Source: Escherichia coli (GTDB lineage: Bacteria > Pseudomonadota > Gammaproteobacteria > Enterobacterales > Enterobacteriaceae). From it: 64,000 bases of DNA. The DNA is taken from NCBI RefSeq assembly GCF_003790525.1, contig NZ_CP033635.1; one strand, written 5' to 3'. How positions within the stretch are numbered: the first letter of the stretch is position 1; each line of letters opens with the position of its first letter. This document shows positions 38,839-46,518 of the stretch, in pieces. Under the pieces are notes generated by a model. The model saw only the letters and a list, made by a program, of their open reading frames with translations, was not told the origin of the DNA and made no database searches. Position numbers and translations under genes: made by a program.

Positions 38839-39145
38839 GATGAAGGAAAAGCCGAGGGGCGTCAACCGAAAAATGACCAATGATGGTGAGGAAAAATCAG
38901 GGAAGTTGAAAAAAACTCATCTTAATTAGAGGCGATAAAAGATTTCTCTATAGCGCAATCCACCTCGCACGTTTTGACTGATATTCTGACAACACAGCGA
39001 CACCTGGGCTTATTCGAAAAACAACGTCCTGCCACCGGATGGTGATGCTAAGGCATCTGATTCGGCCTGCGCCCTCGCGTAGGCCGAATACTGGATCTGC
39101 AAAATCAACTGGTAACAAACAGATGAATCAACTCAATACGTACTT

Positions 39146-40705
39146 TTACTTGATATCTTTCACGCGCATACCGTTGATCTGTTCATCCGTGATGGTGTTA
39201 CCCGCTTTGAAGTAATCAACCACGGCGTGATAAACGTAATAACCGCCCGTTGTGTTACGCGCTTTCCCTTCGGTAAAGGCGGTAAAACCATCTCCACCAT
39301 CAGCAAGGAAACTCTGAGTAGCAATGTGGTAAATCGTCGCATCTTCAATGGGTTTGCCATTCAGAGTCAGCGTGATTACCCGCTGACCAACCGGCTTACT
39401 GCTGTCGTACTTCATTTCCAGGCCTTTCGATACCTGTAAAACGCCATTACTCAAACTTGCGCCGTGTTCCATCAAACTGCGTAATTGTTTACCCGTGAGA
39501 TCCATCGTCACCAGTTCGTTGGGGAACGGGAAGGTACTGATGACGCCACCCATCGTAATTGCACCCGCCGGGATCTCATTGCGAATCCCGCCAGAGTTGG
39601 TTAACGCCAACTGGGTATTTTTACCCGCCGCTGCCAGCAAAGCGTCTGCCGCCAGGTTCCCGAGAGAAGCTGATTCACCATAGGCACGTTTTAGTTCAAC
39701 CGGCGATTGCGCCACCGTTTGTTGCACGACTTCATCCAGCTTTTTGTTCCAACTATCAATCACCTGTTTCGTTTGCGGATCGGGCTTCCACTCATCGGCG
39801 TAAAGGGTTTTAAGCTCGAAGTTTTTCACCGTAAAAGTGTGCGGCTTCTCTTTGTAGTCGAGAACCAGTTTACCGACATCAATCCCGCCGCTGTCAGTGG
39901 AGAGGATTAACGTATTGCCGACTTTAATCGGTTCCGGCGTACCCACATGTGCATGCCCGGTGATCAAAATATCCAACCCTTTCACCTGACTTGCCGTCTG
40001 AATATCTTTATCCAGTGCGCGACGCACATCCGTGCCTCCCATACTGGACTGGCGGGCCGGAACACCTTCGTGGATCAGGGCGACGGTTAGATCAACCTTG
40101 CCTTTGAGTTCATCGATATAACGTTGTAGCCATTTAATTTCATCACGCGCCTCAATACCCACTCGCGTTGCCGCAGATACCGTATCATTAAAGGCAAATA
40201 CACCGTGCAAACCAATCACGCCAATTTTCACGCCGTCTTTTTCAATGATGGTATAGGGCTTATCCCAGAATGATTTACTGCTGTTCTGATAAAAAACATT
40301 ACCCTGCACAATCGGGAATTTTGCCTGACTCAACTGTAATAACGTATTGTCCCAGCCGTGATCAAATTCATGATTACCTATAGTGACCGCATCGAATGGC
40401 ATGGTATTCATAATATCGATAATCGCCTTGCCTTTAGTCAGGCTGCTGATATACGGTCCGGTAAAATAGTCACCCGCATCAAAAAACCAGGTCGCTTTGT
40501 TTTTAGCTTTTTCTTGTTTAACAAGCGTAGTGATATTTGCCCAGCCGCCAATATCCCGTTTACCGTCAGCAATCCACGGCACTTTATAAGGCTCTACATG
40601 TGCATGGAGGTCGTTGGTATAAATGATGGTGACATCTTTGGCGCAAGCCCAAAACGGCAGTGTTAATGCGATACCCGCAGCAAGCATTTTAATTTTCATA
40701 AACAA
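39146..40705 (-). CDS. secreted bifunctional metallophosphatase / 5'-nucleotidase (UshA/CpdB family), paralogue 1
   Basis: 519-aa ORF with N-terminal signal peptide, calcineurin-like motifs ([23 protein letters not shown]) and a C-terminal 5'-nucleotidase-type domain. Absent from this position in K-12 as I recall it. Confidence 0.85.
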
Positions 40706-40831
40706 TCCCTTCCAGTGAGATAAAGGATTGCTACATTACGTTCTGAAAGGCTTTTTTATGTGAGAATACTCACATCCAGAGGCGATAACTGTAGGACAAA
40801 ATCAACGACCTTATGAAATCGTTGGTGATAT

Positions 40832-41959
40832 ATGTCAAATCTGTTTGCGATTAATGTCTGTAAAACGTTCGGTTGTCGAAATTTGGGATTGGCCTCATCG
40901 GAAGATTACAGTTGGCCAGACTATAAACTGGGTTTTCCGGCACTGCACTGCCAGGCATGCGGAAGTTACCCCCCTTTGTTTGATGAACAACAATTTCGTG
41001 ACTGGTTGTCAGTTCACATGACTGCGTGTGCCATAGAAACAGGGCATTTTTGTCCATCATGCTATTGTAAAGAAAAGATTTTTTATGGCCACAACCCGCA
41101 GGGAACACAACGCGTTCAATGCCGTTCATGCAAAAAAGTCTGGACTCCGAAACAGCAGCCAGCAAGAGAAATTACGTATCCCCAGTCCATTGAAACCGTT
41201 CAACTGTTCATGCCCTTTCAAGGAGCCAGCGCAGTACAAAAGCTCTATGTTTTAGTCAGTCTTGACGCCACTCGTGGCAACATCCTTCATCTCTCCACGA
41301 ATTATACGCAACATCAGACAGGAGACAGTCTGCGGTACAGTTACAGAGGCAATACAGAACCAACTGAGCACCATAGCGATATTGTGCAGAGGGTAGATAT
41401 GCGTGAAGCGCAATTCTTGCGCCGGAGCCAGTTCGATGAAATTCAGTATGGCAGTGCTGTGCTCAAGCGCAACGGCAAGGGAGCCATACTACGCCCGGTT
41501 ATCACGGCACACGGGCATTTCAGAATACTGAAAATCCGCTTTCCACATGTCAAAACGCATATCATTTCACACGAATGTTTTCTGAGAGGCGCAATTATTA
41601 CAGCCTGGGCAGATCAGTTCCGCCAACAACAAGGCGAACTTTGGTTCGTAGAAGAAGAAATCAGCGACCGTAACGCTGATATTCCCTGGCATTTTCAGGG
41701 AACGACATACCATGGTTGGTGGCAAAATCAGTGGCAACGCTGGGGGCAGGGGAATAACAGCAAGATGGTCTGCCTGCTCACAGGAGTCTCCTTAGAAAGG
41801 GGCGCAAATGTTTCTCTGGCAACCAGTCGTTGCTTTATCACATGGCTGACAGACCAACACGACTTTACCCAAAGCGCGTTATTATCCGCAGGTCGCGTAA
41901 CGAAAATGCTGACCTCACTGGCGTTAAAATACAATGAATCGCTCACTCCATCTTGTTAG
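40832..41959 (+). CDS. hypothetical Cys-rich protein with N-terminal zinc-ribbon-like motifs
   Basis: 375-aa ORF divergent from paralogue 1; first 100 residues contain C-x4-C, C-x2-C, CPSC-x-C and C-x2-C spacings; remainder unassignable by eye. Confidence 0.55.
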   Translation: MSNLFAINVCKTFGCRNLGLASSEDYSWPDYKLGFPALHCQACGSYPPLFDEQQFRDWLSVHMTACAIETGHFCPSCYCKEKIFYGHNPQGTQRVQCRSCKKVWTPKQQPAREITYPQSIETVQLFMPFQGASAVQKLYVLVSLDATRGNILHLSTNYTQHQTGDSLRYSYRGNTEPTEHHSDIVQRVDMREAQFLRRSQFDEIQYGSAVLKRNGKGAILRPVITAHGHFRILKIRFPHVKTHIISHECFLRGAIITAWADQFRQQQGELWFVEEEISDRNADIPWHFQGTTYHGWWQNQWQRWGQGNNSKMVCLLTGVSLERGANVSLATSRCFITWLTDQHDFTQSALLSAGRVTKMLTSLALKYNESLTPSC

Positions 41960-42188
41960 TCAATACACTCGACAAACGACCATAAATTAATGGGATCACT
42001 ATTTCTCATTTAATTAAATATATGAATATATGACTGAAAAATATAATCACAGTCAATGTTTAATTAATAACATTATTTGTTACCAAGATCACATAATACT
42101 TTCCTGACCTATGCTTACATAAAAATAAGACACGGTGTTCCTTTTATTTAAATAATTCAACCAATGTAACAACCCCTATCAAGGAGGG

Positions 42189-43741
42189 ATGATGAGAACT
42201 GTATTTACGACTTTATCAGTCATATTCAGCGTGATGTTTTCTCACAGTATACTAGCTCAGGACGTTACTATTTATTATACGAATGATATTCACGCACATG
42301 TCAATCCGGCAAAAATTCCCGCTGTTGATAAGAACAGACTTGTAGGTGGTATGGCTAATATTGCAGGCATCGTTAATGAAGCGAAGAAAAAAAACAAAGA
42401 TGTCTTTTTCTTTGATGCAGGCGACTATTTTACCGGTCCGTATATCAGTACCCTGACCAAAGGTGAAGCTATTATTGATATCATGAACACCATGCCCTTT
42501 GATGCGGTGTCCGTTGGTAATCACGAGTTCGATCACGGCGTGCCCAATATGGTATCTCAGTTATCAAAAGCAAAATTCCCCATTCTGCTGGGAAATATTT
42601 ACTACACCGATACAAATAAACCAGTTTGGGATCATCCGTGGACCATTATCGAAAAAGATGGTTTAAAGATTGGTGTGATTGGATTGCATGGTGCATTCGC
42701 TTTCTATGATACAGTCGCGGCAAAAGCACGTGAAGGCGTAGAAGCCAGAGACGAAATTAAATATTTAAATAAAGCACTTGCAGAATTAAAAGGTAAAGTC
42801 GACATTACCGTTTTGCTAATTCACGAAGGTGTTCCGGCGCGTCAATCAAGCTTTGGTAGTAAAGATGTGGAGCGGCTACTACAGGCAGATATTGAGACAG
42901 CTAAAAAAGTGAATGGTGTTGATGTCTTAATTACCGGTCACGCACATGTCGGAACACCGCAACCAATAAAAGTTAATAACACATTAATTGTATCTACCGA
43001 TGCATACGGCACCGACATCGGAAAACTTGTGCTTGATTACAATCCGAAAACAAAGAAAATTGATAGTTATAATGGTGAGTTAATCACCATCTTTGCAGAT
43101 CAATTTAAACCTGACACCATCGTTAAAATACTATCGATAAATGGAGCGTAAAGCTTAACAAAATAACACAGGAAGTTGTCGGCCATTCTCCCGTAGTTTT
43201 AACACGTGAGTATGGCAGTTCTTCTTCTACCGGTAATCTTATTCTGGATGCAATGATGGAAAAAACACCTGATGCCATTGCCGGATTTCAAAATAGCGGT
43301 GGGATGCGAGCTGATTTTCCTAAAGGTGATATCACACTGGGAGATGTTATTAGCACATTCCCCTTTAATAATGACCTCATCGAGATGGATTTGACGGGCC
43401 GCGATCTCAAATCGTTGATGACGCATGCAACCAATCTAACTAACGGTGTGTTACAGGTTTCAAAAAGCGTTGCGGTTGTCTATGACAGCAAAAAACCACT
43501 CAACCAACGGTTAATCTCTTTCACCATTAACGGCAAACCCGTGGAAGATAATCAAACATATCGTATTGCCACGCACTCCTTTTGTGCCAGTGGTGGTGAC
43601 GGTTTTGAAGCATTTTTGAATGGAAAAAATGTGAAGACGATACCGGGAACAACCTCGGCGGAATCTATCATCGATTATTTCAAAAATCATAAACCTGTCA
43701 CCCCAGACTTAACTAAACGAGTCATGGACGTCGCCAAATAA
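42189..43741 (+). pseudogene. frameshifted UshA-family 5'-nucleotidase, paralogue 2
   Basis: ORF 42189..43151 (320 aa; signal peptide and metallophosphatase motifs) stops at taa 43149-43151; homology to paralogues 1 and 3 continues in the +2 frame from about 43127 through ORF 43253..43741. The frame break lies near 43128-43140. Confidence 0.75.
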
Positions 43742-43775
43742 AATATCATTTATCAGTCTATATATTTAACAAGGA

Positions 43776-45401
43776 ATGCGAATGAAAACAGTGCAGCGTA
43801 CTTTACTTGCCGCAACATTGCTGACTATTTTTTCGGTCTCAGTCATGGCGCAGGATGTCACGATTATTTATACAAATGATCTTCACGCTCATGTGGATTC
43901 TTATAAAGTGCCGTATATCGCAGACGGAAAACGCGACATTGGCGGCTTTGCCAATATATCTACTTTAGTAAAACAGGAGAAAGCGAAAAATAAAGCCACC
44001 TTTTATTTTGATGCTGGAGACTATTTCACCGGCCCTTATATCAGCAGTCTGACAAAGGGCGAAGCAATAATTGACATTATGAATACCATGCCTTTTGACG
44101 CAGTATCAATCGGTAATCATGAGTTTGACCATGGCTGGGATAATGCCCTGCGACAATTAAGCAAAGCGAATTTTCCTGTTTTATTGGGCAATGTTTATCA
44201 TAAAGAGAGTGAGAACCCCTTCTGGAACAAGCCCTACACCATCCTGGAAAAAGATGGCATCAAGATTGGTATTATTGGGCTACACGGCGTATTTGCATTT
44301 AATGATACGGTCTCGGAGCTCTCTCTCCAGGGACTCGATAATGACAATAATAACCGCTTTGATAAATCTTCCGAGACCCTTAAGAATCAGGGGATTGAAG
44401 CACGTGATGAAGTGAAGTATTTGCAGCATTATATCGACGAGTTACGTGATAAGGTTGACCTCACTGTGGCGCTGGTTCATGAAGGCGTTCCGGCGCGTCA
44501 GTCCAGCATTGGCAATACAGATGTTAGACGCGCTCTTGATAAAGATATTCAAACCGCTAGCAAGGTGAAAGGATTGGATATTCTGATTACCGGGCATGCC
44601 CACGTCGGAACGCCAGAACCAATCAAAGTCGGCAACACCTTAATCCTTTCAACTGATAGTGGAGGTATCGATATTGGTAAATTAGTCCTTGATGTCAACC
44701 CTACAGCTCGTACCCATAAAATGAAGAGCTTTGAGCTGAAAACAGTTTATGCCGATGAATGGATACCCGATCCAACGACACAAAAAGTTATCAATGGCTG
44801 GAATAAAAAACTGGCGGATATTGTACGCCAACCAGTGGGTGAATCATCGATTGCATTAACTCGCGCCTATGGTGAGTCATCGCAACTAGGCAACCTGTTT
44901 ACCGATGCAATGCTTGTCGCTGCTCCGACTGCACAGATTGCATTGATAAACTCCGGCAGCTTACGTGCGGATATAAATGCAGGCACGATTACCTTTGGCG
45001 ACATTACCAGTACATTCCCCTTCAAGAATGAACTTACTGAAATGGATCTCAGCGGTAAGGATCTGCGTAACCTACTGGAACACGGGGCATCGCTTACCAA
45101 TGGCATCCTGCAAATGTCAAAAGGCGCAGAAATGCGCTATACCCCGCAGAAACCAGTAGGTCAGCGCATAGTATCTTTTAAAATTAATGGTGAAGAGATC
45201 GTTGATACGAATATTTACCATGTTGCAACAACGACTTTCCTTGCACTGGGGGGCGATGGTTTTCTGGCATTCAAAGAAGGGAAAAATGTTCAGGTCCGCG
45301 CCGGAAATAACATGTCCGATGTCGTGATCGATTATTTGAAGAAAGGCCACAAGATTACGCCTGCACAGGTAAATGAAATGCGGGTGGACGTTAGCAAATA
45401 A
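43776..45401 (+). CDS. secreted bifunctional metallophosphatase / 5'-nucleotidase (UshA/CpdB family), paralogue 3
   Basis: 541-aa ORF; signal peptide (…SVMAQD), NDLHAH / GDYFTG / GNHEFDHG motifs; closely similar to paralogue 1 apart from a ~20-aa insertion. Confidence 0.85.
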   Translation: MRMKTVQRTLLAATLLTIFSVSVMAQDVTIIYTNDLHAHVDSYKVPYIADGKRDIGGFANISTLVKQEKAKNKATFYFDAGDYFTGPYISSLTKGEAIIDIMNTMPFDAVSIGNHEFDHGWDNALRQLSKANFPVLLGNVYHKESENPFWNKPYTILEKDGIKIGIIGLHGVFAFNDTVSELSLQGLDNDNNNRFDKSSETLKNQGIEARDEVKYLQHYIDELRDKVDLTVALVHEGVPARQSSIGNTDVRRALDKDIQTASKVKGLDILITGHAHVGTPEPIKVGNTLILSTDSGGIDIGKLVLDVNPTARTHKMKSFELKTVYADEWIPDPTTQKVINGWNKKLADIVRQPVGESSIALTRAYGESSQLGNLFTDAMLVAAPTAQIALINSGSLRADINAGTITFGDITSTFPFKNELTEMDLSGKDLRNLLEHGASLTNGILQMSKGAEMRYTPQKPVGQRIVSFKINGEEIVDTNIYHVATTTFLALGGDGFLAFKEGKNVQVRAGNNMSDVVIDYLKKGHKITPAQVNEMRVDVSK

Positions 45402-45413
45402 TAAAAAAATTAT

Positions 45414-45447
45414 AATGCCATTCATTCACTGAATGGCATTATTTTCT
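45414..45447 (+). terminator. intrinsic terminator after paralogue 3
   Basis: Hairpin aatgccattca ... tgaatggcatt followed by attttc. Confidence 0.65.
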
Positions 45448-45478
45448 CTAAATCAACAATAGATAATGAGATATATTT

Positions 45479-46339
45479 ATGTGTATAAAAAAGCACGGGA
45501 TAGCTTTATCGATTCTATTAATACCTTGCATTGGAAACGCTCAGGAAATTAAAAGTGAGGAAGGCTGGTTACATCAAAGCTTGAATGTCATTGGTCGCAC
45601 AGACTCTCGCTTTGGCCCAAGGCTGACTAACGACCTCTACCCTGAATATACTGTAGCAGGAAGAAAAGACTGGTTTGATTTTTATGGTTATGTTGATCTA
45701 CCAAAATTCTTTGGCGTCGGCAGTCACTATGATGTTGGGATCTGGGATGAGGGCTCACCACTATTTACGGAAATAGAACCTCGGTTTTCCATTGACAAAT
45801 TGACCGGATTAAATCTTGCGTTCGGCCCTTTTAAAGAATGGTTCATTGCAAACAACTATGTCTATGATATGGGTGACAACCAGTCATCCCGGCAAAGTAC
45901 ATGGTATATGGGGCTTGGTACAGATATCGACACGGGTCTACCAATTAAGCTTTCTGCCAATATATACGCCAAGTATCAGTGGCAAAACTATGGTGCCGCT
46001 AATGAAAATGAATGGGACGGATATCGATTCAAAATAAAATATAGCATTCCTCTTACCCATTTATTCGGAGGGCGATTGGTATACAATAGTTTTACTAACT
46101 TTGATTTTGGCTCCGATCTTGCGGACAAATCACACAATAATAAACGAACCAGTAATGCTATTGCTTCAAGCCATATCCTTTCCCTGCTATATGAACACTG
46201 GAAATTTGCATTTACACTACGTTATTTTCACAACGGTGGACAATGGAATGCTGGGGAGAAAGTTAACTTCGGAGATGGTCCATTTGAATTAAAAAACACA
46301 GGATGGGGAACCTATACTACTATTGGTTATCAATTTTAA
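45479..46339 (+). CDS. Tsx-family nucleoside-specific outer-membrane channel
   Basis: 286-aa ORF with signal peptide; strong similarity to E. coli Tsx ([69 protein letters not shown]-terminal ...GYQF). Confidence 0.88.
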
Positions 46340-46518
46340 ATCAGGTGATGTTTTAGATATTTTTACTTAATGCCATTTTGTAATTGTCATAAATAACTTC
46401 ACCATTCACACTGTGAATTCATCGCTCAACACAAAAGCCCCCTTATTACCGGGGCACTGACCAAAGGCAAAATGACAATCAATCACCACCTCCGCAGGAG
46501 GTGGTTTAGAGGTGACAA

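Follow-up and report, generated by a model that had tools for sequence, protein, structure and literature searches.

How did one of three neighbouring nucleotidase genes come to encode 20 residues that the other two lack, and what might these residues do? The question is raised by a 64,000-nucleotide stretch of Escherichia coli DNA (hereafter the window; RefSeq assembly GCF_003790525.1, contig NZ_CP033635.1), which carries three related genes for predicted 5'-nucleotidases, referred to here as paralogues 1, 2, and 3. At a site where paralogues 1 and 2 each have five residues, paralogue 3 has 25. We think it probable that a single ancient in-frame insertion lengthened a loop of the N-terminal domain from five to 25 residues, and that the longer loop alters substrate handling in a specialised paralogue. 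The features on which the comparison depends are the following.

43782-45401, plus strand: paralogue 3 (WP_001361700.1, 539 amino acids), a predicted periplasmic 5'-nucleotidase/metallophosphatase that carries the insert
44316-44390, plus strand: the 25-codon insert segment ELSLQGLDNDNNNRFDKSSETLKNQ, residues 179-203 of paralogue 3, standing in place of the five-residue AATRV/AKARE
44337-44363, plus strand: the Asp/Asn-rich core of the insert, DNDNNNRFD, residues 186-194, EF-hand-like at positions 1, 3, and 9
44112-44126, plus strand: metallophosphatase motif III, GNHEF, residues 111-115, upstream of the insert, with N112 and H113 invariant
44478-44486, plus strand: metallophosphatase motif IV, HEG, downstream of the insert, with H233 invariant
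39146-40705, minus strand: paralogue 1, without the insert, the orthologue of CFT073 c4898 (PDB 3IVD and 3IVE, with uridine and cytidine bound)
42189-43741, plus strand: paralogue 2, without the insert, split here by a 1-bp deletion near 43125

Origin and conservation of the insert

The segment covers 75 nucleotides, or 25 codons, in frame with a 541-codon open reading frame (ORF) at 43776-45401; RefSeq places the start of paralogue 3 at 43782, and the ATG at 43776 is an alternative upstream start. In the three-paralogue alignment, the same site reads AATRV in paralogue 1 and AKARE in paralogue 2. The flanks FAFNDTVS and GIEARDE align cleanly in all three proteins, so the net gain is exactly 20 residues. 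Within the core, DNDNNN is encoded by GAT AAT GAC AAT AAT AAC. A sequence-only reading of this DNA had described an insert of about 20 residues here, and its coordinates and description proved exact (25 residues vs five). Its placement of the insert between conserved metallophosphatase blocks was also borne out, with GNHEF before the segment and HEG after it.

The insert is not a sequencing or assembly artefact, as the region recurs in 658 genomes and in orthologues from other genera. We surveyed 5426 complete E. coli genomes with a 135-nucleotide query made of the insert and 30 nucleotides on each side. The 658 genomes with a match each contain the region in one copy, at full length, and with at least 96.3% identity (96.3-100%). 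Citrobacter, Enterobacter, and an E. albertii-like strain have orthologues with the insert as well.

Comparison with the wider family bears on whether the segment was gained by paralogue 3 or lost by the others. A database search returned 513 homologues, 101 of which were aligned with paralogue 3 (102 sequences in total). The site is 25 residues long in 16 of these sequences and five residues long in the other 86, with no intermediates. The longer form was found in E. coli, E. albertii, Citrobacter, and Enterobacter as well as in metagenomic or read-archive assemblies. With the insert columns removed, a neighbour-joining tree places 15 of the 16 insert-bearers in one clade, which sits seven nodes from the root amid insert-less lineages and has an insert-less sister group; the 16th is a mosaic protein, P0015. 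Both T. thermophilus 2Z1A and human CD73 align across the site without the segment. The 16 to 86 split, the single nested clade, and the short form in 2Z1A and CD73 all point to a derived segment. The insert thus arose a single time, in the ancestor of a small Enterobacteriaceae clade, and does not reflect a deletion in paralogue 1.

The length of this region is otherwise fixed. A full-library HMMER search provided family representatives at 27-49% identity, and the 62 of single-enzyme length were used. The stretch equivalent to H168-D209 contains 21 residues in 53 of these distant representatives, 22 in seven, and 20 in two; paralogue 1, added for comparison, has 22, and paralogue 3 has 42. 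The insertion site is not an indel hotspot, and the insertion disrupted a length that the wider family otherwise keeps constant. The reverse history, with an ancestral segment that was deleted separately from paralogues 1 and 2, is scarcely credible. It would have to accommodate the 86 insert-less homologues spread across many lineages, the nesting of the insert-bearers within one clade, and the short form in all 62 distant representatives as well as in CD73 and T. thermophilus 2Z1A. The wider alignment therefore agrees with the insertion in paralogue 3 that had been proposed from the sequence. Searches for a donor with tblastn and blastn-short against the whole window gave chance matches only.

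The mosaic protein P0015 (GCA_001520995.1, contig LQVM01000178.1, L006 3398-5011) lies at the paralogue 1 locus. It is a clean mosaic, consisting of paralogue 1 over residues 1-105, paralogue 3 over residues 106-239, including the insert, and paralogue 1 again from residue 240 to the end, and every one of 564 informative DNA sites agrees with one parent or the other. Its contig stops at nucleotide 314 of paralogue 3, at the mosaic junction. The protein is either a recent gene conversion or a short-read assembly chimera. Although it initially resembled a conversion that had carried the insert into paralogue 1, we did not retain this reading, as the contig end falls exactly at the mosaic junction and a chimera is possible.

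A further suggestion from the sequence was that the DNDNNN stretch could be a low-complexity expansion, whose length among strains should be checked. By the refuting condition set in that reading, an invariant segment, the expansion is refuted. Tandem Repeats Finder detected no repeats at the insert. Each of the 658 genome matches is one uninterrupted piece with a coverage of 99% or more, all 55 of the matches listed span the full query, and the insert is exactly 25 residues long in all 16 insert-bearing clusters, with no length variation among the 658 E. coli genomes or the orthologues of other genera. We then used codon alignments of SMS-3-5, UTI89, Citrobacter enshiensis, Enterobacter chuandaensis, and the E. 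albertii-like strain. The pairwise ratio of nonsynonymous to synonymous substitution rates (dN/dS) is 0.012-0.12 in the insert vs 0.026-0.072 in the rest of the gene, and dS in the insert is as high as elsewhere in the gene (about 0.7-2.9 between genera). A low dN/dS combined with a high dS places the constraint on the protein and not on the DNA; purifying selection acts on the insert peptide, rather than on DNA or RNA, as strongly as on the rest of the gene. A neutral Asp/Asn expansion by replication slippage, tolerated in a surface loop, would match the composition of the insert, but we consider it very improbable in view of the lack of a detected tandem repeat, of any length polymorphism in the 658 genomes or in 15 orthologue clusters from Escherichia, Citrobacter, and Enterobacter, and of a dN/dS of 0.01-0.12 with saturated synonymous sites.

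Two alleles can be distinguished at insert position 20 (SSETL, 44370-44378). Glu at this position is confined to the SMS-3-5-type allele, which 97 genomes carry with an identity of at least 99%; Ala is found in the UTI89-type allele (561 genomes) and in the orthologues of other genera. A perfect 9-bp inverted repeat, GGTCTCGGA / TCCGAGACC, flanks the insert in SMS-3-5 and was considered as a mobile-element scar or an RNA hairpin. This candidate was rejected as not conserved: UTI89 has a disrupted copy and the other genera lack the repeat, which points to chance. By our own estimate, chance alone gives about 0.1-0.2 perfect 9-bp inverted repeats in 300 nucleotides. Rfam gave no match at the insert, and the other frames hold short chance ORFs only.

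The loop, the substrate cleft, and the pocket

The paralogue 3 enzyme looks functional. All three paralogues contain the Metallophos and 5_nucleotid_C domains (Pfam), and paralogue 3 matches PF00149 with 44.2 bits (cut-off 21.5) and PF02872 with 127.7 bits (cut-off 23.6). The dimetal-site motifs DxH, GD, GNHE, H, and GHxH are intact, with D33, H35, D80, N112, H113, H233, H272, and H274 invariant in the 102-sequence alignment that includes paralogue 3. The retention of all metal-ligand residues and a predicted fold that matches 3IVD are what make the enzyme look active. The N-termini of the paralogues look like Sec signal peptides, suggesting a periplasmic location. Paralogue 3 does not reach the cut-off of the UshA equivalog NF007109 (154.6 vs 600 bits), nor those of NadN (TIGR01530; 121.3 vs 436 bits) and CpdB (NF006938; 99.7 vs 486 bits); the RefSeq product names citing UDP-sugar hydrolase are generic.

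AlphaFold was run with two inputs. With the 102 sequences, the core of the model has a predicted local distance difference test score (pLDDT) of 84, and residues 178-203 fall below 50; with the 13 insert-bearing sequences only, the mean pLDDT is 32. Both runs modelled the insert, with low confidence, as coil with two short flanking helices at about residues 179-182 and 198-201. The surface loop proposed from the sequence is probable: coil at a pLDDT below 50 is at least consistent with an exposed loop.

A more specific position is suggested by the HMMER alignment of paralogue 1 with human CD73, in which the Ser of TVS corresponds to L184 and AATRV to S185-T189. When CD73 is closed, its L184-N190 loop is turned towards the nucleobase (PMC8677862, PMC13077603). 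The carbonyl of L184 lies 3.9 Å from adenine N6 in closed CD73, with a proposed influence on base preference (PMC8677862), and N186 touches N6 substituents in the interdomain cleft (PMC13077603). As AATRV is the counterpart of S185-T189 and this CD73 loop lies near the nucleobase, the insert most likely extends an N-domain loop that faces the nucleobase on domain closure. An effect on substrate access, also raised in the sequence-only reading, becomes plausible through this alignment of the site with the cleft loop of CD73.

The insert is accompanied by substitutions elsewhere in the protein. At 16 positions, the insert-bearing clade has a fixed residue that few or none of the 86 insert-less homologues share. 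The nucleoside- and phosphate-binding residues R354, N390, R395, F417, F500, and D506 of CD73 (PMC8677862) served as the pocket reference, and six of the 16 clade-diagnostic substitutions lie within three residues of their equivalents, with about 1.3 expected. These six are listed with their CD73 counterparts.

S/P368Q: CD73-equivalent N357
T389I: CD73-equivalent L389
G393S: CD73-equivalent G393; G in 85 of the 86 insert-less homologues
P415K: CD73-equivalent G418
N484T: CD73-equivalent P498
D/P/T489L: CD73-equivalent N503

The hypergeometric P for this enrichment, in a post hoc test, is 7.6e-4, and 0.022 within the C-terminal domain alone. The pattern fits a paralogue 3 that would have remodelled its substrate pocket as a whole.

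A second low-confidence stretch (pLDDT below 50) was seen directly after motif IV, at residues 235-246 of paralogue 3 (VPARQSSIGNTD, 44484-44516). It is almost invariant in all paralogues and in the 102 homologues, at P237, Q240, S241, S242, and G244, and could represent a flexible loop of the active site that is conserved and peculiar to this subfamily.

The island around the three paralogues

The three nucleotidase genes share an island with two other genes.

40832-41959, plus strand: a conserved hypothetical protein of 375 amino acids, its gene transcribed divergently from that of paralogue 1
45479-46339, plus strand: the gene for a Tsx-family nucleoside-specific outer-membrane channel, directly downstream of paralogue 3

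The island is about 7.8 kb long, lies between metF and metL, and consists of paralogue 1, the 375-amino acid gene, paralogues 2 and 3, and the gene for the Tsx-like channel. Its G+C content is 34-48%, vs 54-58% for the flanking genes (positions 38900-46500 of the window). Among the 5426 complete E. coli genomes, 658 (about 12%) harbor the island, always once and always on the chromosome; these include uropathogenic UTI89 and avian pathogenic (APEC) strains. In Citrobacter enshiensis, the cassette likewise lies between metF and metL. Enterobacter chuandaensis and the E. albertii-like strain have it at other sites, with the genes in another order and the nucleotidase present in three or four copies. 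The low G+C content, the 12% occurrence, and the differing sites across genera indicate that the cassette has moved by horizontal transfer. In every cassette examined, the insert-bearing copy is accompanied by insert-less copies, the hypothetical gene, and the Tsx-like channel. This arrangement is consistent with a module for nucleotide scavenging that has a division of labour among its enzyme copies.

In a comparison of 15.6 kb around the island, the window differs from E. coli SMS-3-5 (NC_010498.1) at a single base. At 43120-43130, it has one base fewer than the RefSeq sequence NC_010498.1 (CGTTCAAAATA -> CGTTAAAATA). The resulting frameshift divides paralogue 2 into ORFs at 42189-43151 and 43253-43741, and the RefSeq copy is intact, with 516 amino acids. 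This 1-bp deletion is present in none of the 658 island-bearing complete E. coli genomes.

The 375-amino acid hypothetical protein is Cys-rich and is kept in every cassette copy across genera. It has no Pfam match, and its sole match, to NF033558 (IS1 transposase N-terminal zinc-finger region), scores 20 bits vs a cut-off of 100. It may be the regulator of the cassette. The Tsx-like gene is marked in RefSeq SMS-3-5 as a pseudogene 'missing C-terminus', yet its ORF, which ends in ...GYQF, encodes 286 amino acids, as does the intact gene of UTI89, and scores 491.8 bits vs a Tsx subfamily cut-off of 311.

Possible roles of the insert and its known relatives

Taken together, these observations lead us to favour a role of the insert in substrate handling. 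The 20 extra residues would most likely reshape the rim of the substrate cleft, the loop being the counterpart of CD73 L184-N190. The insert and the pocket changes of the C-terminal domain would then change the range of accepted nucleotides or the closure of the two domains, and paralogue 3 would specialise beside the insert-less copies in the same nucleotide-scavenging cassette with its Tsx-like channel. If the insert changes the substrate range or adds a metal switch, this would help to explain why three or four nucleotidases are retained beside a nucleoside channel. Several points weigh against a role in substrate handling. Literature searches on c4898-c4902, 3IVD, and 3IVE yielded nothing relevant, the papers covered name none of the island's enzymes, and the function of all three paralogues is predicted. 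With the insert at a pLDDT below 50, its placement relative to the active site is not given by the model. The mapping onto CD73 is a sequence alignment at about 24% identity and not a coordinate superposition, and the test for pocket enrichment was devised after the data had been seen. Finally, conservation alone is compatible with a role in specificity, stability, metal binding, or partner binding.

The sequence-only reading also raised metal binding by the DNDNNN stretch. The insert could be a loop for calcium, or for another divalent cation, of the EF-hand/Dx[DN]xDG type, in which a helix-DNDNNNRFD-helix arrangement stabilises or regulates the enzyme in the cation-rich periplasm. There is a precedent for such an origin, as Dx[DN]xDG motifs have appeared by convergence in many folds, mostly in extracellular proteins, and for example inside a 25-residue insertion of an archaeal subtilisin (PMC3123361). 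Oxygen donors occupy loop positions 1 (D, 16 of 16), 3 (D/N), 5 (N/S), and 9 (D/S), where all the substitutions remain oxygen donors; the non-ligand position 4 is free (N/K/E), position 8 is an invariant hydrophobic residue (F), and the coil is flanked by short helices in both AlphaFold models. However, the strict pattern Dx[DN]xDGx[ILV][DSTN] (PMC3123361) fits at positions 1, 3, and 9 but not at 5 (N/S), 6 (N/H), or 8 (F). Position 12 is S/A/G and not Glu/Asp, and a Glu is present at position 13 in the SMS-3-5-type allele only, although a more distant residue may serve as the acidic ligand. Three insert peptides matched no Pfam calcium-binding family at E up to 10, the insert peptide is without a sequence match in the PDB, and the loop geometry is modelled at a pLDDT below 50. 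We consider a cation-binding loop unlikely. The more specific idea that the insert is a newly evolved, non-canonical calcium-binding lid on the cleft rim, making closure, and hence activity or substrate choice, cation-dependent, is quite improbable; if true, it would represent a recent de novo EF-hand-like regulatory element inside an enzyme loop of otherwise invariant length.

One could also imagine that the insert is a docking surface, for a partner such as the Tsx-like channel or another paralogue, or for self-association, and not a catalytic determinant. The loop is indeed strongly conserved and predicted to be exposed, and its gene always adjoins the gene for the Tsx-like channel or lies one gene from it. 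However, the insert-less paralogues share the same cassette and the same channel, and the co-occurring substitutions cluster in the nucleoside pocket and not on a separate surface. We regard docking as distinctly doubtful, and an altered substrate handling by the lengthened loop stands as the reading that we hold to be probable.

Among solved structures, that of CFT073 c4898 is the closest to paralogue 3. The two share both PF00149 and PF02872 and belong to the same island; phmmer gives E = 1.4e-228, and Foldseek, run with the AlphaFold model of paralogue 3, gives a template modelling (TM) score of 0.96 (target-normalised), 66% identity, and a root-mean-square deviation of 2.2 Å. The structures 3IVD and 3IVE are titled 'putative 5'-nucleotidase', and c4898 is nearly identical to paralogue 1 over 499 aligned residues. 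Unlike paralogue 3, it has the five-residue loop AATRV where paralogue 3 has 25 residues, and paralogue 3 differs from it beside the nucleoside pocket by G393S, P415K, D489L, and other changes. The classical 5'-nucleotidases CD73 and UshA, which use domain closure in catalysis, belong to the same superfamily and have the same domain architecture. The paralogue 3 model is nearer to closed CD73 (TM about 0.75) than to open CD73 (about 0.53). However, their identity to paralogue 3 is only about 21-24%, and their loop is of the standard short kind, containing an NPG/NPE motif that paralogue 3 lacks. The calcium loops described in 2011 (PMC3123361) resemble the insert in being Asp/Asn-rich, of similar size, and inserted in an extracytoplasmic enzyme, with D at position 1, D/N at 3, D/S at 9, and a hydrophobic residue at 8; they differ from it in having D-G instead of N-N at positions 5-6, and the insert is non-acidic at position 12. 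Set beside these systems, the insert of paralogue 3 represents ordinary divergence between paralogues of a known enzyme family, if a tidy case of it. It provides a clean small example of how duplicated enzymes diverge, with one 20-residue insertion in a loop of otherwise fixed length that has been kept across genera together with pocket-adjacent changes.

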